Sequence record: PQ850622.1
Reading direction: 5' to 3' (one strand)
Length of the DNA: 64,000 nucleotides
Source: Escherichia phage OliverMaurmann_Bas86
The first letter of the stretch is position 1, and every line of letters begins with the position of its first letter. Position numbers and translations under genes: made by a program. A model generated the notes under the pieces. That model searched no databases, was not told the DNA's origin, and was given only the letters and a program-made list of their open reading frames with translations. Below are positions 30,837 to 46,078 of this stretch, piece after piece.

Positions 30837-31484
30837 TTAACTCTCCAAAGTTTTCTTCAAAGCTGCCCATGAGATTGGATAGAGTTTAGCCATCTCTTCA
30901 TCTAATGACTGAGCAAATAGTCGAACTTCATATTGAGCATGGGATGATAGTCGTTGACGACACAATTCAAACCAGCCATACAAGCTACCAGTCCAGTACC
31001 AAGTAGTTACCATACCTTGAGGTAAAACAAATCTAGCTTGTTCAGGAGCTACGAACTTAATCAATTCGTCATAACTAGCAAGAGATGCCTCGTACGCAGA
31101 GTTAAACAAAGCTAAAGCTTTTGCCTCTTCCTCCCCTTCAAGAAGTATTCCAGAACCAGAATGTAGATCATCTGGACGGGAGAAGATTTCTTTAGGTATG
31201 AAAATATCCACTGCTCCATCTTTATATCTACGACTCATCTCGTTCCAAGAAAAACCAACTTGATGCTTCTGTAACTGTCGTGCAATTGCTATAGGAGCTT
31301 CGCATCTGAAGCTCGCTTGTGGGTGACGAAAAGGACTTACGTGTCGTTCCCGAGCTAGAAAATTTATTAGACGAGTGTCACTTTCTTTTAATTCTTCCCT
31401 TTCTACCCCCATAGTTACACGAGCAGCATTGACTACTGTAAGATCTGAACCGAAGTTATCAATTAATGAAGCTTTGATTGTCAT
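30837..31484 (-). CDS. thyX: flavin-dependent thymidylate synthase (ThyX-like)
   Basis: RHPQASFRCEAPIAIARQLQKHQVGFSWNEMSRRY matches the ThyX RHR...S...SxRY signature. Confidence 0.7.
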   Translation of the reverse strand: MTIKASLIDNFGSDLTVVNAARVTMGVEREELKESDTRLINFLARERHVSPFRHPQASFRCEAPIAIARQLQKHQVGFSWNEMSRRYKDGAVDIFIPKEIFSRPDDLHSGSGILLEGEEEAKALALFNSAYEASLASYDELIKFVAPEQARFVLPQGMVTTWYWTGSLYGWFELCRQRLSSHAQYEVRLFAQSLDEEMAKLYPISWAALKKTLES

Positions 31485-31950
31485 TTATGTAAGTCTCCTT
31501 GACTTTATTATATTCCCTAGAGGCTTCTTCTATGGTTGAGAAGAGTCCTATGTGCTTAGATTTAAATACCGCCCGGTAAGCAATAGAGCCACTTTTCCTT
31601 CTATGGACAGTCACTCCAATCACTCCGGTTGATAAATTATTACTCTGAGCTACTTTGTTTAGGCCATTTCCTGATCTAGTAGTCCCCCTAAGATTCTCTC
31701 TTTTGTTGTTTATCCTGTTGCGGTCTATGTGATCTACTTCTTCAGGAAGCAATCCAGTGTCCCACCAGTAAGCAAGTCGATGAGCGTAGTATCTAGCACC
31801 TTTATAAACGATTCTCAAATACCCATTGGTATTTACAGAACCAGCTATAGACCCTTTGTGTCCTTTTCCATAAGTTTTAACCCATCGGAAATCTCCAGTC
31901 AAAGGGTCGTAATCAAGAGCTTCTTTTATTGACGGGTCAATATCATTCAT
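31459..31950 (-). CDS. HNH homing endonuclease with AP2-type domain
   Basis: YAHRLAYWWDTGLLPEEVDHIDRNRINNKRENLR plus VIGVTVHRRKSGSIAYRAVFKSKHIGLFSTIEEASREY. Confidence 0.6.
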   Translation of the reverse strand: MNDIDPSIKEALDYDPLTGDFRWVKTYGKGHKGSIAGSVNTNGYLRIVYKGARYYAHRLAYWWDTGLLPEEVDHIDRNRINNKRENLRGTTRSGNGLNKVAQSNNLSTGVIGVTVHRRKSGSIAYRAVFKSKHIGLFSTIEEASREYNKVKETYINDNQSFIN

Positions 31951-32431: not shown

Positions 32432-32617
32432 TTACAGCATAACAAGAACGATAATAAGAGGTAGTGTTATAGCAAAATGTACCAGAACAACACTACCTAG
32501 CTTGATAGCTTTAACATCCTCTTCTGCTGGGTTTTCTTTAATTGCTAAATTTCGAGCTTTATAGATAATAGTACCAACTATTAACGACCACACGGCCCAC
32601 ACAACCAATGAAATCAT
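32432..32617 (-). CDS. small two-TM membrane protein (paralog 1)
   Basis: MISLVVWAVWSLIVGTIIYK...VVLVHFAITLPLIIVLVML. Confidence 0.4.
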   Translation of the reverse strand: MISLVVWAVWSLIVGTIIYKARNLAIKENPAEEDVKAIKLGSVVLVHFAITLPLIIVLVML

Positions 32618-32626
32618 ATCAAACCC

Positions 32627-32806
32627 TTATGCAGTCAGAAGGTGAAGCAGGAATGGGATAACAACAGCTACGACAACCATGATGGTTGATGCTGTTTGAA
32701 TCTCACCTTTCTTGTCAGGGGTTTCTTCAATAAGCTTACCAGAAGCCCAATAGATACCACCGCCAATAAAGATAGCCCAAATACCCCATACGATTGCTGA
32801 TAACAT
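32627..32806 (-). CDS. small two-TM membrane protein (paralog 2, 59 aa, below ORF-track cutoff)
   Basis: Hand-translated MLSAIVWGIWAIFIGGGIYWASGK...MVVVAVVIPFLLHLLTA, clearly related to 32432..32617. Confidence 0.35.
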   Translation of the reverse strand: MLSAIVWGIWAIFIGGGIYWASGKLIEETPDKKGEIQTASTIMVVVAVVIPFLLHLLTA

Positions 32807-32867: not shown

Positions 32868-33443
32868 TTAGTAAGACACATCACCACTTGAGTGGGACAT
32901 GTTGCTCTTGACGAAGTAACAGAACTTGCCAAGACCTTCATTAATTTCTTGAAGCATACTCTGGTCCACTGGATAGGTGCACAAGTCTGAATCAAACTCA
33001 TCCATCTTCTCAATGATACACATAAGAGTCATGCACATGTCGGAAAGCATACCGTCCATGTCGAGATCAGCGTTACCTTCTCGGAACCAAGCATGGCCTA
33101 AATAATTACTAGCAGTAGCATCCACTTTAACACAATGAAAGCGCATACGCTCTGCTATTCGGTCGCCTGCCTCACGAGCATAATCTTCTAGTTCATCGAA
33201 CATACCATGAACACCTTGGAAACCAGCTCCAGAGACGTTCCAGTGGTAGTTCTTTGCTTTGATGTGTAGAAGTTCAAGGTTAGCTTGCACACCACACAAG
33301 ATGTGTTCTAAGCTGTTACCGCTAATCAGTTTATTCATTCCCTCAAGACGAGAGATAGAAGAGTCAGTAGTAGAGAATGGGTTGCTAGAACCCACTCGTG
33401 TTAGTTCTGGTAAGTCGAAGACATTATTATGCATTAGGTGCAT
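32868..33443 (-). CDS. Dps/ferritin-like protein
   Basis: LELLHIKAKNYHWNVSGAGFQGVHGMFDELEDYAREAGDRIAERMR resembles the Dps ferroxidase-site helices. Confidence 0.45.
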   Translation of the reverse strand: MHLMHNNVFDLPELTRVGSSNPFSTTDSSISRLEGMNKLISGNSLEHILCGVQANLELLHIKAKNYHWNVSGAGFQGVHGMFDELEDYAREAGDRIAERMRFHCVKVDATASNYLGHAWFREGNADLDMDGMLSDMCMTLMCIIEKMDEFDSDLCTYPVDQSMLQEINEGLGKFCYFVKSNMSHSSGDVSY

Positions 33444-33774
33444 CCCCTTCTAAGTTAGTTGAATTAGCTACATTACGAGCAATGTTATCCATGACCTGCT
33501 GGGTAATAACAATGCAATTCTGTGGGTCTACAGACTTAGAACGCCCCATTTCAGGGTCATAAACCTTAACACGCTTGGCTGTTGAGCCAGTAACTTGCAA
33601 CACTTTGAGAAGATAACCTTGGTTTCCAATAGACCATGCAACAACATCACGATTCTTGATATAACGACCAAGCATATCACGATGATAGAACTGCTGCATA
33701 ACTTTAGCTTTGCTAATCTCTTCAGATGGCGGGGCCACTTTACTCAAATCTAACATAACTCTCTCCTGTTTCAT
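33427..33774 (-). CDS. hypothetical protein
   Basis: 115 aa ORF. Confidence 0.3.
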   Translation of the reverse strand: MKQERVMLDLSKVAPPSEEISKAKVMQQFYHRDMLGRYIKNRDVVAWSIGNQGYLLKVLQVTGSTAKRVKVYDPEMGRSKSVDPQNCIVITQQVMDNIARNVANSTNLEGDAPNA

Positions 33775-33826
33775 ACAATATTCTTATACTGTATATACAT
33801 TTGAGAGTTATCATATCTACTACCAA

Positions 33827-34033
33827 CTAGTAGTGGACCTTGCTAGTCAAGGACCCAGCACTGTTATTATCATTTTGAAACCAGCGATGAATCTCCACTT
33901 TTTCAGCGAGTCCTAAAGCTTTTGTAGCTTTCTTAGCAAGACGAGCTTCTTGTCGTGTGTCGAATAATTTAAGACAGTCACCACCGAGATCTTTGTTAGC
34001 CCATTTAACACGAACTGCCCATAATTTAACCAT
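33827..34033 (-). CDS. hypothetical protein (tandem paralog)
   Basis: Shares W.VRV.W....TRQEAR and C-terminal KVHY with 34033..34248. Confidence 0.35.
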   Translation of the reverse strand: MVKLWAVRVKWANKDLGGDCLKLFDTRQEARLAKKATKALGLAEKVEIHRWFQNDNNSAGSLTSKVHY

Positions 34034-34248
34034 TAGTAATGTACCTTTCCGCTGATATAGAAACGACCTGATTTAAAGTCCTGAGCTTTGTGGATAGTGA
34101 TCTTGTCAATAGTACTTTCGCAGCTTAATAAGAACTTCTTATGAGCGCGAGCTTCTTGACGAGTGTTTCTGATACCCATTGACTCTGTACCACTGCTCCA
34201 GTGAACGCGGACTACCCAACGTCTTTTCATTGTTCCAAACTCCATCAA
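34033..34248 (-). CDS. hypothetical protein (tandem paralog)
   Basis: Shares W.VRV.W....TRQEAR and C-terminal KVHY with 33827..34033. Confidence 0.35.
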   Translation of the reverse strand: MMEFGTMKRRWVVRVHWSSGTESMGIRNTRQEARAHKKFLLSCESTIDKITIHKAQDFKSGRFYISGKVHY

Positions 34249-34782
34249 TTATACGCCTTTAGAAGCAACAACCCCATCAGAGTTATTGTAACGACCCTTC
34301 ACTGCATAGGAATCATCACCAGCGTGAGAGTGTTCAAACATAACCATTTGACCAACACGCATCCCAGCACGAACTCGTAAGCTGTGATTGTGGGTAACGT
34401 TATGGAACTCAAAGGTTAGCTTACTGCTGTTAAACCCTGCATCAGCCCACCCAGCATGTAAGTGGTTCAAACCACAACGAGCCATTGAGGAGCGAAGTAC
34501 AAACAGACTTGAGATGTTATCTGGAAGGTTAAACTCTTCCATTGAGTGCGCTAAGAAGAATTGTCCCGGAGTGATGACAATACCATCTTCAGGGATTTTC
34601 ACCTCTTTCCACTTGAGGTTTTCTTTAGCATCAATGTCAACAATGCCGTCAGCCTGTTCTTCAACAAGGATAGTATCACCAATACGGATATCCACACTAG
34701 CAGCGTTAACATATTTATGCTCCGCATCTAAAAAGCCATTATCAATAACACTGTGTAATTCTTGAGAACCTAAAAGACTCAT
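34249..34782 (-). CDS. dCTP deaminase / dUTPase-family enzyme
   Basis: ASVDIRIGDTI, LRSSMARCGL, AGWADAGFN, GMRVGQMVMF. Confidence 0.6.
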   Translation of the reverse strand: MSLLGSQELHSVIDNGFLDAEHKYVNAASVDIRIGDTILVEEQADGIVDIDAKENLKWKEVKIPEDGIVITPGQFFLAHSMEEFNLPDNISSLFVLRSSMARCGLNHLHAGWADAGFNSSKLTFEFHNVTHNHSLRVRAGMRVGQMVMFEHSHAGDDSYAVKGRYNNSDGVVASKGV

Positions 34783-36227
34783 GAGTTTCTGTTTCCTTGT
34801 ACAGATGATGCCAAATTGTTAATCATGTTACGAGCTGTTTCACGAGTCAGCGTAACACCTGCTAAGTTACTATCAAGTTCACCAACTAATTCACGAGCTG
34901 TTGCTCGGAGTTCTGCACCAAGTGTAGTGTTAGAATGAGCCAGACCATTACGACGACCGACAGGTCGAGGAGTATTGTTAGCATCATTAGCTAAAGATGC
35001 AAAACCAATACGAGCAGCTTCACGAGCGGCTATAGCTGCTACCCGATCTTCCGTAGGGGTTGGCAAATCACCAACTTCTACACGTTCTATATCACTAGAA
35101 CGTAGACCCTGAACAACAGAGCTAACTGTTTCCCATGAACGACGGGAGCGCTGCAAATCACCCATAGATGGAGAAGAAGCAGGTCGAACAGTTACTCCAC
35201 CTGTATCATGAGTGACGTGCCATGTACGAGTACCCATTCCAGAAGAACGGGCACTACCAAAACTACCAGTGAAAGTATCACGAGGTGCCTCTGTAGCAGG
35301 TGCTGCGAATCTTGTCTGTTGCCAAGAGTCACGTCTGTCAGTTCCCGGAGTCCAAGGCTGCGTAATTGCTTCAGCACCTATAGTGGTTAATCCGCTAGAC
35401 CATTCTGTCTGTAGATTAACTTCCTCGTCCAGATAACTACGACCCCTTTCCTGAGGAATGTTTAATATAGTTTCCATCATCTTCAGGGTATAATGATGAC
35501 GCTGATTCTGATATAAATTTACACCAGCCATAGGTCCAACTAAATCACTAATCAGGTGAACTTCTGGCTCACCGAAAGCTCCCATTGCAAGGTGCATGTA
35601 TTCAGTAGAACTGCTATAAACTGCAACAGTTGCTTCAGGCCACTTCTTGTGAACATACTTCATTTCACGACTAGATACCACAGGAATGTCACGAGTGTAT
35701 GACATTGCAAACAAACCTTCGTTTGACACATACAGATTACCAAGAGTCATAAACCCTTGACAGATCATAGGAAAGCGACGGCTTAAAGTATCCATATCCA
35801 AAGGTAGATTAATCATCATCTGGATTTTAACTTGATCAATCTCAATTTCCAGAATCTCTTGGAAAGTGAAAAGCGCTTCAGCATAGGTTGTCCCGTTAAC
35901 AGGCTGAATTAGTCGAGATGTAACCTGAAGCCCCTTACTTTCTGTCCAAGATAAGAAGTTGTCAAGGAATAGTGCAGCATTACCTACGTTAGCAGGGCTG
36001 TTTTCTTGACGAGTGTTCCAACGAAGCCCTCCTTGAACTAGGAAGATATCAACATCATTCGGAGTTCTATTTTGAAAGAACGTATCACGGATAGCACCAC
36101 CTGCAATAACAGGATAGATGCCATCAGGGACTACGTTATCTCTGATCAAATTACGAATCAGGTCAAGCCCTACACTGAGGGCTTCTCCTTCTTGAAGGTT
36201 CAATTCAGATAGTGGAATCTTAATCAT
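34779..36227 (-). CDS. Pol-beta-superfamily nucleotidyltransferase (CCA-adding-enzyme-like head domain) with low-complexity C-terminal half
   Basis: PVIAGGAIRDTFF...NDVDIFL resembles the GGxVRD...DxD head motif; C-terminal ~200 aa Ser/Thr/Arg/Gly-rich. Confidence 0.4.
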   Translation of the reverse strand: MIKIPLSELNLQEGEALSVGLDLIRNLIRDNVVPDGIYPVIAGGAIRDTFFQNRTPNDVDIFLVQGGLRWNTRQENSPANVGNAALFLDNFLSWTESKGLQVTSRLIQPVNGTTYAEALFTFQEILEIEIDQVKIQMMINLPLDMDTLSRRFPMICQGFMTLGNLYVSNEGLFAMSYTRDIPVVSSREMKYVHKKWPEATVAVYSSSTEYMHLAMGAFGEPEVHLISDLVGPMAGVNLYQNQRHHYTLKMMETILNIPQERGRSYLDEEVNLQTEWSSGLTTIGAEAITQPWTPGTDRRDSWQQTRFAAPATEAPRDTFTGSFGSARSSGMGTRTWHVTHDTGGVTVRPASSPSMGDLQRSRRSWETVSSVVQGLRSSDIERVEVGDLPTPTEDRVAAIAAREAARIGFASLANDANNTPRPVGRRNGLAHSNTTLGAELRATARELVGELDSNLAGVTLTRETARNMINNLASSVQGNRNS

Positions 36228-39739: not shown

Positions 39740-40975
39740 TTACAGAGTTACTGCTACTTCGCTACCTTCAACATTGACAGACTCTAACTTGCGAGGGTTA
39801 TGAATCTGTACCGGATTAACCGGAACGTTCCAACCACTACGGTAGAAGTTACGACCATCACAGAACAAAATGACATTGGCAGACATTGCATTCGGTTGCA
39901 GGTTGTTATGGACATGACGGATATCTGCAATCCAATAACCACGAGACAAAGTGTAACCAGTAGGTGCATTACGAATAGTTTGAGTATTCATCTGACCTTC
40001 CAGTTGCATCTCTTCAGGAACTACATCTACCGAATCAACTGGCTGTGCTACCTGATCTTCCAGTGCAAAGTTTTCATCATTAGCGCTTTCGCTGTCATCT
40101 ACCAACTCACCGTCTCCATCTTCAATCGGAGTCTGGTAAACCACTTTATACTGAGGAGTATAGAGAGGGTTCTGAGCTTTAACAAACTCAAGGATGTTAT
40201 GGCGGTAGGTATCCAGAGTTGTACCAGTCAGGCCCGGTGCTGTATTAACTTCCAGTACCCACGCTTCTTGACCTTTGGTGATAATATCAACTGCACCGAA
40301 ATCCAGACCCATTGATTCAACAGCTTTCACCGCATTGATCAGAGAGGCGTCATTCGGAGCATCTGTGAAGGAGCTTGAGTAAACCCAGCCAGTGTGGTGA
40401 TTACGAATATCTTCACGATAGTTAGGGTCTTCGCGATAACCATTGCGACGAATCTTCTTCTGAACATAGGTGATTACACCTTTGAACACATGAACACGCC
40501 ACTCACGACGTGGGCCTTGAATGCCTTTAGTGTACAGTTCAGCTCGACCAAGACCATCACCCGGTTCTACAACAACAATACCCGAACCAGAGTGACCAGT
40601 CAGCTCATGGCGCTCATACACAATATTACCAGTGTTTGACCACTCCTGAGCAGTCTCTTGAACATCTGTGTATTCCACAGTTTTAACACCTGCTTGGTCC
40701 ATCACACTGAAAGCACGACGTTTGTTCGCTGCCATATATAAGGCTGCGGTACGGTTAAGGACGGTTGCAGAACCAAAGAATGATTCAGGATAGCGACGGT
40801 TCCCGTAGTTAACAACCACATCACCTTCACGAGAACGCCAGCGGCTATTCTCTGAAAGAAGACCCATCACGTTAGCATTGATGCGTTCATCACGGATAGT
40901 ATCACTGATAGCAGATACTAGAGCGTTAACAGAATCAGACGGGCCATACGGAAGAACACGGATACGAGTAGTCAT
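39740..40975 (-). CDS. ATP-grasp family ligase
   Basis: GHSGSGIVVV, EWRVHVF, and C-terminal AWVLEVNTAPGL typical of ATP-grasp folds. Confidence 0.55.
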   Translation of the reverse strand: MTTRIRVLPYGPSDSVNALVSAISDTIRDERINANVMGLLSENSRWRSREGDVVVNYGNRRYPESFFGSATVLNRTAALYMAANKRRAFSVMDQAGVKTVEYTDVQETAQEWSNTGNIVYERHELTGHSGSGIVVVEPGDGLGRAELYTKGIQGPRREWRVHVFKGVITYVQKKIRRNGYREDPNYREDIRNHHTGWVYSSSFTDAPNDASLINAVKAVESMGLDFGAVDIITKGQEAWVLEVNTAPGLTGTTLDTYRHNILEFVKAQNPLYTPQYKVVYQTPIEDGDGELVDDSESANDENFALEDQVAQPVDSVDVVPEEMQLEGQMNTQTIRNAPTGYTLSRGYWIADIRHVHNNLQPNAMSANVILFCDGRNFYRSGWNVPVNPVQIHNPRKLESVNVEGSEVAVTL

Positions 40976-40977
40976 TT

Positions 40978-41208
40978 TTAGATACCTTTTAGTTTAAGAA
41001 TTTCGTTACGACAGGATTGAATTTTAGCTTCGATTGCCCAATACTCAGCGAACATTTCGTCTTCTTGGGCATCGCTTGGAGAGTCAATTAAGTTAAAAGC
41101 AAACGGATACAGCTTTCGCTGCTCCGTTACCAGTTGTTGAAGTCGGAGTTGTTGATACTCCAGCATTGTCAGGTGAGGCTTAGCTCCCTTGCTTGACATG
41201 AGGCTCAA
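40978..41208 (-). CDS. hypothetical protein
   Basis: 76 aa ORF. Confidence 0.3.
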   Translation of the reverse strand: MSLMSSKGAKPHLTMLEYQQLRLQQLVTEQRKLYPFAFNLIDSPSDAQEDEMFAEYWAIEAKIQSCRNEILKLKGI

Positions 41209-41413
41209 CTTTAATCCCCTTCATTTTAACATAGTCAGCCAACACGTTATTGATAACGGTTGGAAAAGGGATTTCTACTGGAGAGTCAACCAGCTTCCCA
41301 ATACCTTCTTGCATCCACTTCTGGATTGCTCGGAGGTTATCACATCCTGTGCTTGTCATCGGAATACGGCGGGTAGTTACCACGTTATCCAACATCAGTT
41401 TACGAACTTCCAT
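41180..41413 (-). CDS. hypothetical protein
   Basis: 77 aa ORF. Confidence 0.3.
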   Translation of the reverse strand: MEVRKLMLDNVVTTRRIPMTSTGCDNLRAIQKWMQEGIGKLVDSPVEIPFPTVINNVLADYVKMKGIKVEPHVKQGS

Positions 41414-41424
41414 AACTATACCTC

Positions 41425-43458
41425 TTAGTGTTTACCTTTACAGTAATCTGAATTACAGATCACCCTGTTTTCTTTGTTCAGTGAGCAAGTTTCTGCATCA
41501 CGCCACGGAATTTGTTTATAACAGACTGCACAAAACCCAATTGAAGTCCAGAGGGCTTTTGTAAACTCAGCTGTTCGTTGTCCATCGTAACTGACAACTG
41601 TTTTTCGGAGAGAGGTTGACTTTTCTGGAAATGTCTCCGCTTTCTCAGCGGGTACCTCCTTTGGGGCATTCTTTGGACCATAAACAGAGATGGCATAAGT
41701 ATCACCACCACGTTTTTCCAAATACGAATTAGGAACATCTGCAAGTGTGATGTCCCCTGAACGTTTTGCTGAGCTGACCATTACAATCATACGGCTAAGC
41801 ATACGTTCATCAACACGAACAGCTACTTCAGGACGACGTGGGTTGGTTGTGTCTACTGCTTTAGTCCAAATATAACCTTCAGATAGAGTAACATTCTTTA
41901 CTTTATCTTTGATTTCTTTGGAGCAGATATAACAAACGTCTTCACCACGAAGTTTACTCATTTCGTTGTCAAACTCGAAATCAGTCTTGACTTCACCACA
42001 GATAGCACATACACCCAAAGGCACATCTTCTTCCTCTTCAGAGGTTTTAGATAACGCTTCGAAGCATTCTGGATGCCAGTATGCCTGATAAGCAAACACA
42101 GCCTTACGAGCATCTTTCCAGTCAATGTGCTTATCACAACCACCACAGTCACCATGAGAGTGAGATTCCCAGAACTTACGAGTGACTTCTACACCATTCT
42201 TAGTGATGAAGGAGTCCTCTGCATCAAAAGGGATATCATCATCAAAATCAGCAGTAGTGCTTTGAGGCTCCTTATCTGTAGCATCAACAAACAGCCCTGA
42301 AGTTAGTACGAGGCGAATCATACTGTCCACTTCGGAGATACAAGCGATTGTCCCGCGATATACTACCTTTGGGTTTTCAAGAGCCTTAAGATATTCATCT
42401 TTGGCTACGTTGTGAACATCCCCTTCGACATACTCTTGGGCTTTATCATCGTAGATGTAACCAACCATCTTACCACGATCTGTGTTGTTATAAGCATGGA
42501 ACTCGTGAGGAGTAATATCCACACGACCATCACGACGATAAGGAAGACCACGATCGGCAGCCAGTTTGTTCTGGTCTTCAATCGCTTTACGACGACGAAT
42601 GTCTCCGCTTGTCACGCCGGGCTTGTCGTCTTTGTTTCCGTAAATGTCGCTTGTGCTGCTGCTTGGTTTGTTTGTCTGTTGGTTCTGATAAAGAGAGGAG
42701 TTCGAGTAATAGCCGCCCCAGCGACTCGTTACCGTAAAAACCGGAAGCTTGTGCTCCACCTCTTGAACCAGAGTCATACGACTGTTAGACACATCAAAGA
42801 TATACTCAGTTCCCACTTTACACTCGAAGTGGTCATTGATACGGTTCTTGTGGGATTTAGAACGCTCTAAAATCCACATAAGCATAGCTTCTTCAGAAGC
42901 CCCAAACCAATCCAAACCACAGCGGGCTAGGTGGAAAGGACGCTCATCATTACGGATAATGTGAAGCGTGTTGTCTTTAGCATCATGCCAAATCAAAGTG
43001 AATGCACCATCCAGTTTTTGGATAGTCTCTGCTGCTCCAATGGTGTTAATTGAGTGGCAGATGTTTTCACTATCAACTTCGAAACGCTTACTGTCAGGAA
43101 GGAGATCTTGATCTAACAGGGTTCCATTATGAACCAGAGTAATATCCCCGTGAGTAAATGGGTGAGCATTTCGAGCATTGACAGCCCCACGAGTGGCATG
43201 TCGGCTGTGACCAACAATCCACGAAGGAGGAACTACGTAGTTCGTAAGCCCTTTGGTAATATTTGTATATTCTGTCTGGAGCATAAAAGCATAAGAAGGA
43301 AGAGCTTCTTTATAAGAGAAGACTTGCTTTTCACCTTTACGCTGACCAAACACACCAGTTGAGTGCTGTCCACGGAAAACACCAGCATACAGAAGTTGGT
43401 TGAAAATGTCCAAATCTGCTGAGGTCATGTTGCCGCCAGCTAATACGATACCACAAAT
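41425..43458 (-). CDS. class-II (Ntn) glutamine amidotransferase with Cys-rich C-terminal domain; probable ATT start
   Basis: In-frame extension upstream of the first ATG reads stop-K-I-CGIVLAGGN-M...FRGQHSTG, i.e. the Cys1 nucleophile and RGxxxxG motif of Ntn amidotransferases; AGGTGG lies 8 nt upstream of the ATT. Confidence 0.55.
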   Translation of the reverse strand: MCGIVLAGGNMTSADLDIFNQLLYAGVFRGQHSTGVFGQRKGEKQVFSYKEALPSYAFMLQTEYTNITKGLTNYVVPPSWIVGHSRHATRGAVNARNAHPFTHGDITLVHNGTLLDQDLLPDSKRFEVDSENICHSINTIGAAETIQKLDGAFTLIWHDAKDNTLHIIRNDERPFHLARCGLDWFGASEEAMLMWILERSKSHKNRINDHFECKVGTEYIFDVSNSRMTLVQEVEHKLPVFTVTSRWGGYYSNSSLYQNQQTNKPSSSTSDIYGNKDDKPGVTSGDIRRRKAIEDQNKLAADRGLPYRRDGRVDITPHEFHAYNNTDRGKMVGYIYDDKAQEYVEGDVHNVAKDEYLKALENPKVVYRGTIACISEVDSMIRLVLTSGLFVDATDKEPQSTTADFDDDIPFDAEDSFITKNGVEVTRKFWESHSHGDCGGCDKHIDWKDARKAVFAYQAYWHPECFEALSKTSEEEEDVPLGVCAICGEVKTDFEFDNEMSKLRGEDVCYICSKEIKDKVKNVTLSEGYIWTKAVDTTNPRRPEVAVRVDERMLSRMIVMVSSAKRSGDITLADVPNSYLEKRGGDTYAISVYGPKNAPKEVPAEKAETFPEKSTSLRKTVVSYDGQRTAEFTKALWTSIGFCAVCYKQIPWRDAETCSLNKENRVICNSDYCKGKH

Positions 43459-43535
43459 TTTCTAATCCACCTGAAGGGTAAACCCTTTCATCTAATTAAC
43501 CTTTAAATGCGCCCTGTATAAGAGCGCCCGTTGTG

Positions 43536-44636
43536 TTACAGCAGTCGTTCTAATTGCATTTCCAGAAGGTCTGGAATATAACCAGTGACGTTATCATCAC
43601 TGCTACCTGATTCACGCATCAATGCAAACATGTGACGAATTTCACGAACCGTTGCGATTCGAGTGCTTTCAATCTGAGGGGTGTAGTAGGTCATGATCTC
43701 TTCGTAGACACTGTTGGCATTACCGCGCACATATCCCAAGAAACCATAGAAGTCATTCATATCACGTAAGTTGATAAGGACTTCACCATCAGGGCCAGTC
43801 TGTTGCACACGAACACGACCAACCAAAGTCACAGATTGCTCACGACAGAAGAGAATATCACGAGCAAGACGATACCCTTCAGTGAGATCACTGTCTCTTG
43901 GAGTATAGTCTAGGGGTAGATGTTGAATCATAGGAGCGAAGCGCAGCTCATTCAACTTCTCAACATAAGCTTCATTGTCTAAATCTGCATATTCAACAGC
44001 CAGTTTCTTGAGAACCAAGAAGCGGTTGACCAGATTCAGAAGTTGGCTCTTTTTCCACTTCGGCTCTGAGATACGGAACTCAACAGAACCAAATTGAGAT
44101 AGAGGCAAAAGATTAAGGGAGGTATATTTATCCCAGCTATTAACAAGAGAGTGGAAGAAAGCTTCCCCGTCTCGGTTGAACGCTGACGAAGCATTCATAA
44201 CTTGTGCTTGAACGACAGCAAAAGCTGGACAGAAGTTGCTACGATAGCGATGGTATCCAGAACATTTGAACATCATCTTTTCATAGAACGTCCATCCAAG
44301 AATAACTTTCTTAAGGATGTTACTATCAGCGTCACGCATATCCATATGAACATGAGTGGAGCAGCGCCAAGTTCCCTCGGCTCCAGAATCCTGTACTGCT
44401 TCACTCAGATTGTTAATAGCACGAAGTAATTCTTCACCGTTGTAAGGTCGTGCACATACTAATTCACAACCATCACGAAGAGAGCCATCTTCAGTACAAA
44501 CCCACATATCAGCGTCAATGTCAGTTGTACCTTCGACTTCTAACTCAATACCAACACCACACTGAAAAGCAATACTTGGATGCGGTTCAGATAAGCGAGG
44601 GTTACGGTATCCAAAAACTTGTGCTACGGTTGTCAT
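43536..44636 (-). CDS. glutamine-synthetase-fold carboxylate-amine ligase (amidoligase)-like protein
   Basis: GVGIELEVEG and STHVHMD resemble the GxExE and HVH motifs of YbdK-type ligases. Confidence 0.45.
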   Translation of the reverse strand: MTTVAQVFGYRNPRLSEPHPSIAFQCGVGIELEVEGTTDIDADMWVCTEDGSLRDGCELVCARPYNGEELLRAINNLSEAVQDSGAEGTWRCSTHVHMDMRDADSNILKKVILGWTFYEKMMFKCSGYHRYRSNFCPAFAVVQAQVMNASSAFNRDGEAFFHSLVNSWDKYTSLNLLPLSQFGSVEFRISEPKWKKSQLLNLVNRFLVLKKLAVEYADLDNEAYVEKLNELRFAPMIQHLPLDYTPRDSDLTEGYRLARDILFCREQSVTLVGRVRVQQTGPDGEVLINLRDMNDFYGFLGYVRGNANSVYEEIMTYYTPQIESTRIATVREIRHMFALMRESGSSDDNVTGYIPDLLEMQLERLL

Positions 44637-45259
44637 AATGATTCCACCAACTCTACATTATATGATGACAGGTCTGAAGAAATATGCTTGAACTTCTCCA
44701 GAAGGTTTAAAGATTGACGACCATTGTCGCCATAACCAGCTTCAAGAAGCACGTTTCCAACGTAAGCCCCTTTGTAATAAACTTTTCCATCGACAGGATT
44801 GATATAGATGAAACGAGTAACCAACCCTTCAAACTCTGGATTAAACAGGTTGTACACCAATTCACCCGGAATCGAACGACCGAGAGAAGGAGGTGCACCG
44901 CGAAGTTTGTTTCCCATCAAACCTTTAGCTCTCTGACGAACAGGGTTGATATGGGTCCAGCTCACCATGTTATTGCCATGCTGAAGGTATCCTACATCTG
45001 GAGATTCCAGAATAAGGCTGTGATCAAACACTGGTATATTGCTAACAATCTGACGTTCAAACTGACCTTCAGAGTTTTTAGTCCAACGTTCTGCCTCAAA
45101 CACTAAAGACATTTCAGCGTCGTGTGAGTAGTCGTCGATATCAAAGTTACCTTGCTGACGAACATCAAGCACATATAGAGGGAGGTTTTTACCATCAGGT
45201 GATCGCTGAGCAATCCATGTTCCACAATAATAGTGTTGAAAATCTCTTAACAAGCTCAC
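44633..45259 (-). CDS. hypothetical protein in amidoligase module
   Basis: 208 aa ORF, overlaps neighbours. Confidence 0.35.
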   Translation of the reverse strand: MSLLRDFQHYYCGTWIAQRSPDGKNLPLYVLDVRQQGNFDIDDYSHDAEMSLVFEAERWTKNSEGQFERQIVSNIPVFDHSLILESPDVGYLQHGNNMVSWTHINPVRQRAKGLMGNKLRGAPPSLGRSIPGELVYNLFNPEFEGLVTRFIYINPVDGKVYYKGAYVGNVLLEAGYGDNGRQSLNLLEKFKHISSDLSSYNVELVESL

Positions 45260-45268
45260 AATATCACC

Positions 45269-46078
45269 TTATACAATCTGGAGTTTAGAGGAGAATTTAT
45301 CCGCTTCTTTAACATCGTTGCTGTTGATGATGTTATGAAGCTTTTCGATTGGAAGACGAGAGTGAAGTGACATCAACACTTCCATATCACAGCCTTGAAC
45401 AACCTTATCCACTTGCTCATAAACAAACTTGCGGGTTGACTTCTCACCAATCCAGAAGTTAGAAAGAGAACGATATTCAATACCGTAGTCCTTGTAACGA
45501 ATAGCAGAAGCCTTTCCGTACAACTCTTTACGACGAGTGTCTTTATCCATGATTACAGCTGGCAAGGACAGGAAGTAATCACACAGCACACCCAACATCA
45601 TTTGAGTTTGTCGATTGATCTCCAAAGTTCCAGAGACACCGAGGTGCACATGGCCCCCAGCAGTACGCAAACCTTTATCGGTTGCGACTGGTGAAGGGTT
45701 CTTTTGTCCAGTGAAGGCGTTGAAATCAGGAGTACAGCCAAATACAAAAGCTGACGGATGGAATGATTCAAGCTCTTCTGAAGTGAACACATGAGAGCTA
45801 ATCCCAAGCGCTGCTTCCAGACCACGATCATTCAGGATTTTGTTAGTCAGATCAATACCGCGCTGAATATTATCATCAAACGCTTCAAACCCTTTCTGTG
45901 GGTTAATATCAAACTCAGCCAGAACGTTGTCTTCTTGAAGACGAACATCAGGAGCCAGATCAATTTTGTTATCTTTAGAACATCCCAGCTTACCAGCCAC
46001 AGAGGTGATAATACCGGAAGCAGTACGAACAAACATTTCCGGATCCGACCCTATTAAGAATTTACGTTTAGTAGTCAT
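45269..46078 (-). CDS. second amidoligase-like protein (weaker match)
   Basis: FLIGSDPEMF and GGHVHLGV echo the same GxExE / HVH pattern. Confidence 0.35.
   Translation of the reverse strand: MTTKRKFLIGSDPEMFVRTASGIITSVAGKLGCSKDNKIDLAPDVRLQEDNVLAEFDINPQKGFEAFDDNIQRGIDLTNKILNDRGLEAALGISSHVFTSEELESFHPSAFVFGCTPDFNAFTGQKNPSPVATDKGLRTAGGHVHLGVSGTLEINRQTQMMLGVLCDYFLSLPAVIMDKDTRRKELYGKASAIRYKDYGIEYRSLSNFWIGEKSTRKFVYEQVDKVVQGCDMEVLMSLHSRLPIEKLHNIINSNDVKEADKFSSKLQIV

Follow-up and report, generated by a model that had tools for sequence, protein, structure and literature searches.

In Dps proteins, the ferroxidase site lies between subunits, with two histidines (plus an aspartate) contributed by helices A and B of one subunit and an aspartate and a glutamate by helix B of its neighbor, and a short helix within the B-C loop sets the family apart. 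The Dps cage is hollow, is built from 12 subunits in 23 symmetry, oxidizes Fe(II) with H2O2 or O2, and keeps the iron as a ferric core. Maxi-ferritins and bacterioferritins have an intrasubunit di-iron site with conserved E-x-x-H motifs and assemble as 24-mers. In Listeria Dps, residues D121, D126, and D130 make up the acidic pore at the N-terminal 3-fold axis. DNA binding by most studied Dps proteins needs flexible basic tails (PMC13319912, PMC9103930). Among phages, a DPS-domain protein was described in 2014 for SU10 and was found in all C3 phages (PMC4281155), and a 2021 paper on Privateer again noted a Dps domain in this gene family (PMC7881722). We found no functional, biochemical, or genetic study of any phage Dps in the searchable literature. 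Because the SU10 paper had already described the orthologue as a DPS-domain protein, the Dps identity of the gene analyzed here is correct but known; a lead that is new, if modest, lies in the module that it forms with a small partner gene and, in distant phages, with NrdD, the anaerobic ribonucleotide reductase.

The window, that is, the whole 64,000-nucleotide stretch of Escherichia phage OliverMaurmann_Bas86 (PQ850622.1) that was analyzed, belongs to a Gordonclarkvirinae (Kuravirus-like) podophage resembling phiEco32 and SU10. The 3 kb around the gene are 90 to 93% identical at the nucleotide level to Escherichia phages PAS59, AnnaHegner_Bas87, and SU7 and other Gordonclarkvirinae (Kuravirus, Suseptimavirus, Nieuwekanaalvirus), prolate “C3” podophages that are kin of phiEco32 and SU10. 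The open reading frame (ORF) list of the window gives a 191-codon ORF on the minus strand (32868..33443), and the peptide quoted in the earlier note, LELLHIKAKNYHWNVSGAGFQGVHGMFDELEDYAREAGDRIAERMR, corresponds to its residues 56 to 101. The Shine-Dalgarno-like GAAGGGG immediately abuts the first ATG, and its spacing to the second in-frame ATG, at codon 4, is 9 nt. Nearly all homologues, as well as the SU7 and KBNP1711 annotations, start at the codon 4 methionine, which is invariant in the family alignment. Since both the Shine-Dalgarno spacing and the homologue starts favor this codon, the second ATG is probably the real start, giving a predicted product of 188 residues and 21.1 kDa. Residue numbers below refer to the 191-residue ORF; 3 should be subtracted for the 188-residue protein. 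The coordinates of the locus are collected in the table.

Table. Features of the Dps locus and its upstream region in the window
Feature	Position	Strand	Basis or remark
Dps-family (mini-ferritin) CDS	32868..33434	-	188 aa plus stop; ORF list, Pfam Ferritin, PHROG 3636, Shine-Dalgarno position, homologue starts
Alternative first ATG	33443	-	In frame, 9 nt upstream of the ATG at 33434; yields the 191-aa ORF
Shine-Dalgarno-like GAAGGGG	33444..33450	-	9 nt upstream of the ATG at 33434; seen in the sequence
N-terminal extension, ~43 residues	33306..33434	-	Kuravirus-type “long form” only; column counts, composition, pLDDT, dN/dS
Dps core, predicted four-helix bundle	32901..33311	-	AlphaFold2 core pLDDT 87 to 98; top Foldseek PDB matches all Dps
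Codons of the putative ferroxidase center (H67, W68, H79, D83, D94, E98)	33150..33245	-	Alignments A1, A2, A5
Partner gene (109 aa, phrog_10984, SU10 CDS68)	33427..33756	-	Directly upstream of Dps
Partner Shine-Dalgarno AGGAGAG	33761-33767	-	Precedes the partner gene
Promoter-like region	33775..33850	-	Intergenic, upstream of the partner gene; TTGACT at 33845-33850; AATGTATA at 33794-33801

The likeness to Dps goes well past what chance would give. The Pfam model PF00210 (Ferritin) scores the protein at 32.9 bits, above its gathering score of 24.5 (E value, 7e-8), and PHROG 3636 matches with an E value of 1e-52. A phmmer search against all PDB sequences returned almost only Dps proteins, headed by Mycobacterium smegmatis Dps2 (E value, 7e-10). 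A family profile built from 35 phage-clade sequences retrieved 8045 proteins at E values of ≤1e-3 from 1.84 billion representative proteins, with the alignment spanning the whole Dps core. The cutoffs of the NCBIfam Dps equivalogs are missed (34.7 versus 114 bits), and a score this far under them indicates a divergent branch whose chemistry could differ rather than an orthologue of one of the named subfamilies of bacterial Dps. For the multidomain Dps matches of the representative search (P0044 and others), Pfam finds Ferritin domains only; P0044, with 777 residues, has two ferritin-like stretches.

The AlphaFold2 model (mean pLDDT, 83) consists of four predicted helices (residues 45 to 69, 75 to 102, 129 to 150, and 158 to 181) and a short helix in the BC loop (residues 111 to 116). 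The top 50 Foldseek matches in the PDB are all Dps or Dps-like, with target-normalized TM scores of 0.8 to 0.9 and root mean square deviations (RMSDs) of 1.2 to 2.4 Å, and the structures superposed on the model include both crystal and cryo-EM structures of Dps. The protein does not show the pattern of a maxi-ferritin or bacterioferritin: the PDB matches by sequence and by fold are all of the Dps type save a few chance hits with E values of >0.3. The PDB entry 3kwo, labeled “putative bacterioferritin,” is a 152-residue chain whose match is limited to the helix A/B region. The sole E-x-x-H of the phage protein (E57..H60) is not conserved, position 60 being variable in the consensus, and the ligands are confined to helices A and B.

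Three alignments were inspected for these ligands: A1, which includes the E. coli and Listeria Dps proteins; A2, with 35 phage-clade sequences; and A5, with nine divergent phage homologues. Residues H67, W68, H79, D83, D94, and E98 align with H51, W52, H63, D67, D78, and E82 of E. coli Dps and with H31, W32, H43, D47, D58, and E62 of Listeria Dps. H67, H79, D94, and E98 are invariant throughout the three alignments, and D83 is kept in 34 of the 35 sequences of A2; all five metal ligands are invariant in the nine divergent homologues, including metagenomic ones at 26 to 33% identity. W68 is invariant in A1 and A2 and is replaced by leucine only in two metagenomic contigs, L009 (3373-3813) and L010 (3350-3790), which read HLNV for HWNV. 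The conserved, interface-proximal W68 and the intersubunit ligand set are compatible with a 12-subunit cage. The acidic residues of the 3-fold pore have only partial counterparts: Listeria D121, D126, and D130 align in A1 with D153, P158, and S162 of the phage protein. Position 153 is aspartate in 14 of 35 sequences and the nearby position 160 in 22 of 35; some acidic character is present, but the pattern is not conserved. The earlier note had read the ORF as a Dps/ferritin-like protein with a resemblance to the di-iron ferroxidase helices of Dps, naming a ferritin-like profile search and an alignment of the metal ligands among its tests. These two were run and bear it out: PF00210 scores above its cutoff, a Dps fold is predicted, and the ligands are present and essentially invariant. 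At the level of sequence and predicted structure, the ORF product is thus confirmed as a genuine Dps-type mini-ferritin with an intact ferroxidase site.

The best-supported reading of the locus, to which we assign a probability of about 0.6, is a Dps-type dodecameric cage that would oxidize and store Fe(II) and consume H2O2. Dodecamer formation, ferroxidase activity, and a benefit to the phage are what we infer by analogy with characterized Dps proteins. Twelve subunits of a functional mini-ferritin would form a hollow cage with a site for two Fe(II) ions at every dimer interface, made up of H67, H79, and D83 from one chain together with D94 and E98 from its neighbor. H2O2 would be the preferred oxidant of the bound iron, which would then accumulate as a ferric core. 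This would leave less free Fe(II) and H2O2 in the infected cell during phage DNA and deoxynucleoside triphosphate (dNTP) synthesis, which may limit Fenton damage to replicating DNA and redox-sensitive enzymes. The Dps gene would be the second of its transcription unit, translationally coupled to the partner gene, and by homology to phiEco32 and SU10, both would be middle genes.

The Dps gene belongs to a module for replication and nucleotide metabolism. In transcriptional order, it is preceded by genes for a DnaB-type primase-helicase, an exonuclease subunit, a 482-residue nucleotidyltransferase, a dCTP deaminase, two small paralogues, and the partner; it is followed by two small paralogous membrane proteins, a 58-residue ORF, thioredoxin, an HNH endonuclease, and ThyX, and farther on by PhoH and a family A DNA polymerase. 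The location of Dps between the dCTP deaminase and thioredoxin/ThyX is kept among relatives. The partner stop and the Dps start overlap by 8 nt (ATGCATAA). The partner is predicted to be an SH3-like small β-barrel with a C-terminal helix, and its family of 114 proteins matches no Pfam family. In at least nine phage lineages, the partner lies directly upstream of Dps, mostly overlapping it; apart from the window, its loci are L003 3139-3423, L005 3109-3462, L004 1882-2148, and those in L006 to L014.

Several of the surrounding genes deserve mention in their own right. Two adjacent paralogues encoding small basic proteins of 68 and 71 residues (33827..34033 and 34033..34248, minus strand) lie between the dCTP deaminase and partner genes; they are 33% identical, both belong to phrog_4939, and each ends in KVHY. 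Directly downstream of Dps are two adjacent hydrophobic paralogues of phrog_9296, with 59 and 61 residues (32627..32806 and 32432..32617, minus strand), each apparently with two membrane-spanning segments; SU10 has one small gene there. The HNH endonuclease gene (Pfam HNH_3; 31459..31950, minus strand) sits between thioredoxin and ThyX and overlaps the ThyX start. It is probably a mobile, homing-type insertion, because it occurs in Bas87 yet is absent from the SU10 counterpart. The SU7 record names its counterpart of this ORF “baseplate wedge subunit,” apparently a misannotation. The 482-residue “nucleotidyltransferase” (34779..36227, minus strand; phrog_12715) has no Pfam match, and its C-terminal ~200 residues look to be of low complexity, rich in Ser, Thr, Arg, and Gly. 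Farther away, at 39740..46078 (minus strand), lie genes for a glutamine amidotransferase, an ATP-grasp protein, an amidoligase, and a “phiEco32-like COOH-NH2 ligase,” a cluster typical of this phage group.

In SU10, CDS25 to CDS68 were classed as middle genes, and a good sigma-70 promoter was placed upstream of CDS68 (PMC4281155); the SU7 record likewise has a promoter annotated at the equivalent place upstream of the partner. A strict sigma-70 consensus scan of the gene's strand returned no site, so that the promoter upstream of the partner rests on these annotations by others, and the promoter-like region of the window is a tentative candidate for the start of a transcription unit with the partner and Dps. 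Terminator-like sites occur at chance level only, one of them within the Dps gene (33153..33138). The SU10 paper also gives a promoter motif of the phage sigma factor, tAATGTAt (PMC4281155). TAATGTA is found at 20 sites in the window against 10.5 ± 2.9 expected, a count that none of 100 shuffles reached; one site lies inside the partner gene (33469..33475, minus strand), 32 nt upstream of the Dps start, and the AATGTATA upstream of the partner is a near-copy.

In distant phages, mostly metagenomic contigs, the pair is linked to the anaerobic ribonucleotide reductase. A recurrent order of DnaB helicase, exonuclease, dCTP deaminase, partner, Dps, and NrdD is found in L006/L007, L008, L009, L010, and L012, and the NrdD proteins of the distant contigs have ATP-cone, NRDD, and glycyl-radical domains. 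The stretch from deaminase to NrdD was located at ~3000 to 6800 in L006, L008, L009, L010, and L012; the loci considered in this connection also include L011 and L005 (1-2942). L011 carries an upstream NrdD with a Fer4_12 radical-SAM-like gene and two ATP-cone genes downstream, and in Aeromonas phage LAh_9, NrdD and NrdG adjoin the partner-Dps pair. Small stand-alone ATP-cone or ATP-cone-like genes come directly after Dps in Privateer, SE131, LAh_9, and L011, and in L013 and L014, the partner is followed directly by NrdD, without Dps. Within the window, tblastn searches with NrdD, NrdG-like, and ATP-cone queries from the related loci and Pfam searches of the large ORFs found none of these, and a ribonucleotide reductase inside the window was ruled out accordingly.

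This synteny suggests a reading in which Dps is not a general DNA protectant but a dedicated helper of nucleotide synthesis that scavenges oxygen or peroxide for enzymes relying on iron or radicals or supplies them with iron, with NrdD and its Fe-S activase as ancestral clients and the SH3-like partner as an adaptor. It would account for the recurrence of the pair beside NrdD in L006 to L010 and L012, beside NrdD, an activase-like gene, and ATP-cone genes in L011, and beside NrdD and NrdG in LAh_9, and for the ATP-cone-like gene after Dps in the short-form phages. However, the window has the pair under strong purifying selection with no NrdD, NrdG, or ATP-cone gene, L013 and L014 have NrdD after the partner with no Dps, and shared synteny may merely mirror a common timing of expression; we regard this helper role as possible but doubtful. 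The ancestral role of the module could have been tied to oxygen- or iron-sensitive dNTP synthesis, the module surviving without NrdD. A broader proposal, which we put forward as speculation and consider rather unlikely, is that the SH3-like partner and Dps constitute a conserved two-protein module of phage deoxynucleotide supply. In it, the cage would take up oxygen or peroxide or act as a chaperone for iron, and the partner would link the cage to a client (anaerobic ribonucleotide reductase system, replisome, or nascent DNA). NrdD would have been lost from the Kuravirus-type phages, which would have retained the module and gained matching extensions at the N termini of both proteins for a new interaction.

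Such extensions are present on both proteins (33306..33434 for Dps and 33700..33756 for the partner, minus strand) in the Kuravirus-type clade only. The Dps extension has two conserved motifs, MHNN(V/P)FDLP at the extreme N terminus and S-x-x-R-(L/M)-(E/D)-x-M in a predicted helix; AlphaFold2 models the extension with pLDDT values that are low to moderate and places a helix at residues 29 to 41. The tail probably mediates a specific interaction. Readings of MHNNVFDLP as a clamp-binding, capsid-targeting, or protease-site motif were considered, and none fits well. Dps starts with MHNNVFDLP and the partner with MLDLSKVAPP, and a scan of the window for [FLIVM]DL[PSAK] within the first 14 residues found only these two proteins and one internal methionine of another ORF. 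The similarity, noticed post hoc, is suggestive and may reflect a shared interaction or targeting signal or be a coincidence. Most long-form sequences contain 5 to 10 cysteines (3 in a few shorter ones), and the shorter forms aligned in A2 contain 0 to 3.

The composition of these tails bears on whether the protein is primarily a DNA-binding or DNA-compacting protein that coats phage or host DNA, with iron chemistry being secondary. Database entries are named “DNA binding protein,” the nearest relatives of solved structure, M. smegmatis Dps1 and Dps2, are DNA binders (PMC2779847), and the short-form homologues of SE131, Privateer, LAh_9, L009, and L011 have short K/R-rich N termini like those of DNA-binding Dps proteins. 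The window protein, however, is strongly acidic (pI 4.8; net charge of about -14 per subunit); its N-terminal tail has 3 K+R against 5 D+E with no lysine cluster, and its C-terminal tail, SNMSHSSGDVSY, has no basic residue and ends in tyrosine. By the composition of both tails, a basic DNA-binding tail of the E. coli Dps type is not present. Among phage homologues, the N-terminal tail is missing (L006, L008, L012), short and basic (SE131, Privateer, LAh_9, L009, L011), or long and nonbasic (Kuravirus type); because the tails vary while the ligands stay invariant, what the clade conserves is the ferroxidase site, not a tail for DNA binding. The DNA-binding label itself apparently derives from the family name rather than from an experiment. 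The long-tail form probably works without binding DNA directly, and a primary role in coating DNA is unlikely. Of the three roles offered by the earlier note (oxidative-stress protection, DNA compaction, and iron sequestration), compaction is therefore the least supported, given the acidic protein and its nonbasic N-terminal tail.

Against KBNP1711, dN/dS is 0.058 at a dS of 0.35, with values of 0.03 to 0.07 for the core and 0 to 0.18 for the N-terminal tail; against the closest relatives, 1 to 4 synonymous changes and no nonsynonymous changes were counted. The gene is thus under strong purifying selection, and the N-terminal tail is constrained too. Expression is documented by mass spectrometry for two relatives. 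The SU10 orthologue was detected with 35.8% coverage (PMC4281155), in a sample that had been only polyethylene glycol (PEG) precipitated and that also contained DNA polymerase, thioredoxin, PhoH, and sigma factor (PMC4281155); because this crude sample held replication enzymes, it demonstrates expression and not residence in the virion. The Privateer orthologue was detected in CsCl-purified virions, and that paper gives its function as unverified (PMC7881722).

Three uncultured-phage proteins in BFVD (A0A6J7XDU5, A0A6J7WPK9, A0A6J7WIS1) annotated as “prohead protease” carry a Dps-like domain, and a Dps fused to capsid-maturation proteins would recall the ferritin cargo of encapsulins. A protein packaged in the head or carried by the particle and acting at or before genome entry, for which the Privateer virions and the possible existence of such capsid-internal ferritin-like domains speak, is very improbable here, as the gene lies in the replication module and not in the structural module, the SU10 cryo-EM study names gp20 to gp24 as the head-internal ejection proteins with no mention of Dps (major gel bands alone were analyzed), and a 9-nm dodecamer would be too large to leave through the portal, and an iron-loaded cage would be dense enough to co-band with phage in CsCl. 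A defense or antidefense role was dropped after PADLOC defense models matched none of Dps, the partner, and five small neighbors.

By tblastn, 133 of 50,697 phage records match the window protein, and every one of the 92 Escherichia records of the Kuravirus type is among them. Other phages with Dps-like folds include Bacillus phage G, Lactobacillus phages LP65 and Semele, and crAss-like and uncultured phages. The earlier description of Dps proteins as unusual in lytic phages thus fits the small fraction of matching records, but not the Kuravirus-type phages, where the gene is universal among the Escherichia records, nor the several other lineages with Dps-like folds. Deposited orthologues are labeled “DNA binding protein,” “hypothetical protein,” “ferric iron binding protein,” or “integrase”; the last of these, found in IME267, E20-1, PAS59, 101114UKE3, MLP3, EcoN5, DE5, and others, is backed by neither sequence nor fold. 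On ~100 deposited orthologues, the labels “DNA binding protein” and “integrase” are unsupported or wrong, and a defensible name would be “Dps-family ferroxidase / mini-ferritin.” The question posed is why a strictly lytic podophage lineage and its distant relatives keep an iron-oxidizing cage under strong selection, coupled to a small partner and, in many relatives, adjacent to an oxygen-sensitive ribonucleotide reductase. The answer would reveal how phages that replicate where oxygen varies, as in the gut and in wastewater, handle iron and oxidative chemistry meanwhile, and the phage Dps would offer a small self-assembling viral nanocage for study.

Compared with known systems, the nearest counterparts are other phage proteins. 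The Bas87 (Bas87_0063, XPK40323.1; deposited as “DNA binding protein”) and HC-25922 orthologues are 100% identical to the window protein. It shares 82 to 84% identity with the SU10 type (CDS67, the “DNA-binding protein with DPS domain” of the phiEco32 group), which occupies the equal place after CDS68 and is the same gene. The short-form Dps proteins of Proteus phage Privateer (gp068), Salmonella phage SE131 (gp090), and Aeromonas phage LAh_9 (gp087) (Grimontviridae, Lahexavirus) are 33 to 43% identical and have the same ligands, the shared upstream partner (displaced by 1.3 kb in SE131), and nucleotide-metabolism surroundings. Unlike the window protein, they have 144 to 156 residues, short basic N termini, and an ATP-cone-like gene after Dps, with NrdD and NrdG flanking the pair in LAh_9.

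Among bacterial proteins, the closest solved structures are M. smegmatis Dps2 (2Z90, 4M35) and Bacillus anthracis Dlp-2 (1JIG), which, like the phage protein, consist of a four-helix bundle plus a BC helix; they superpose on its model with RMSDs of 1.2 to 2.4 Å across 134 to 143 residues and target-normalized TM scores of 0.8 to 0.9 at 24 to 26% identity, and the motif HW-x10-H-x3-D-x10-D-x3-E matches residue for residue. The phage protein differs from both in its 43-residue nonbasic N-terminal extension with motifs of its own, its tyrosine-ended C-terminal tail, and the cysteine-rich composition of the long forms. E. coli Dps belongs to the same family and has the same ligand set at 17 to 19% identity, with phmmer E values of 0.04 to 0.09 for its chains. 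A recent origin by capture from the host was rejected on this low identity and because the best relatives are Dps proteins of actinobacteria and Bacillus; judging from sequence relationships, the phage Dps is a divergent, old viral branch of the family. Whereas E. coli Dps has a pI of 5.7, no cysteine, and an N-terminal tail with three lysines in its first 20 residues, the phage protein is more acidic and has no such tail.
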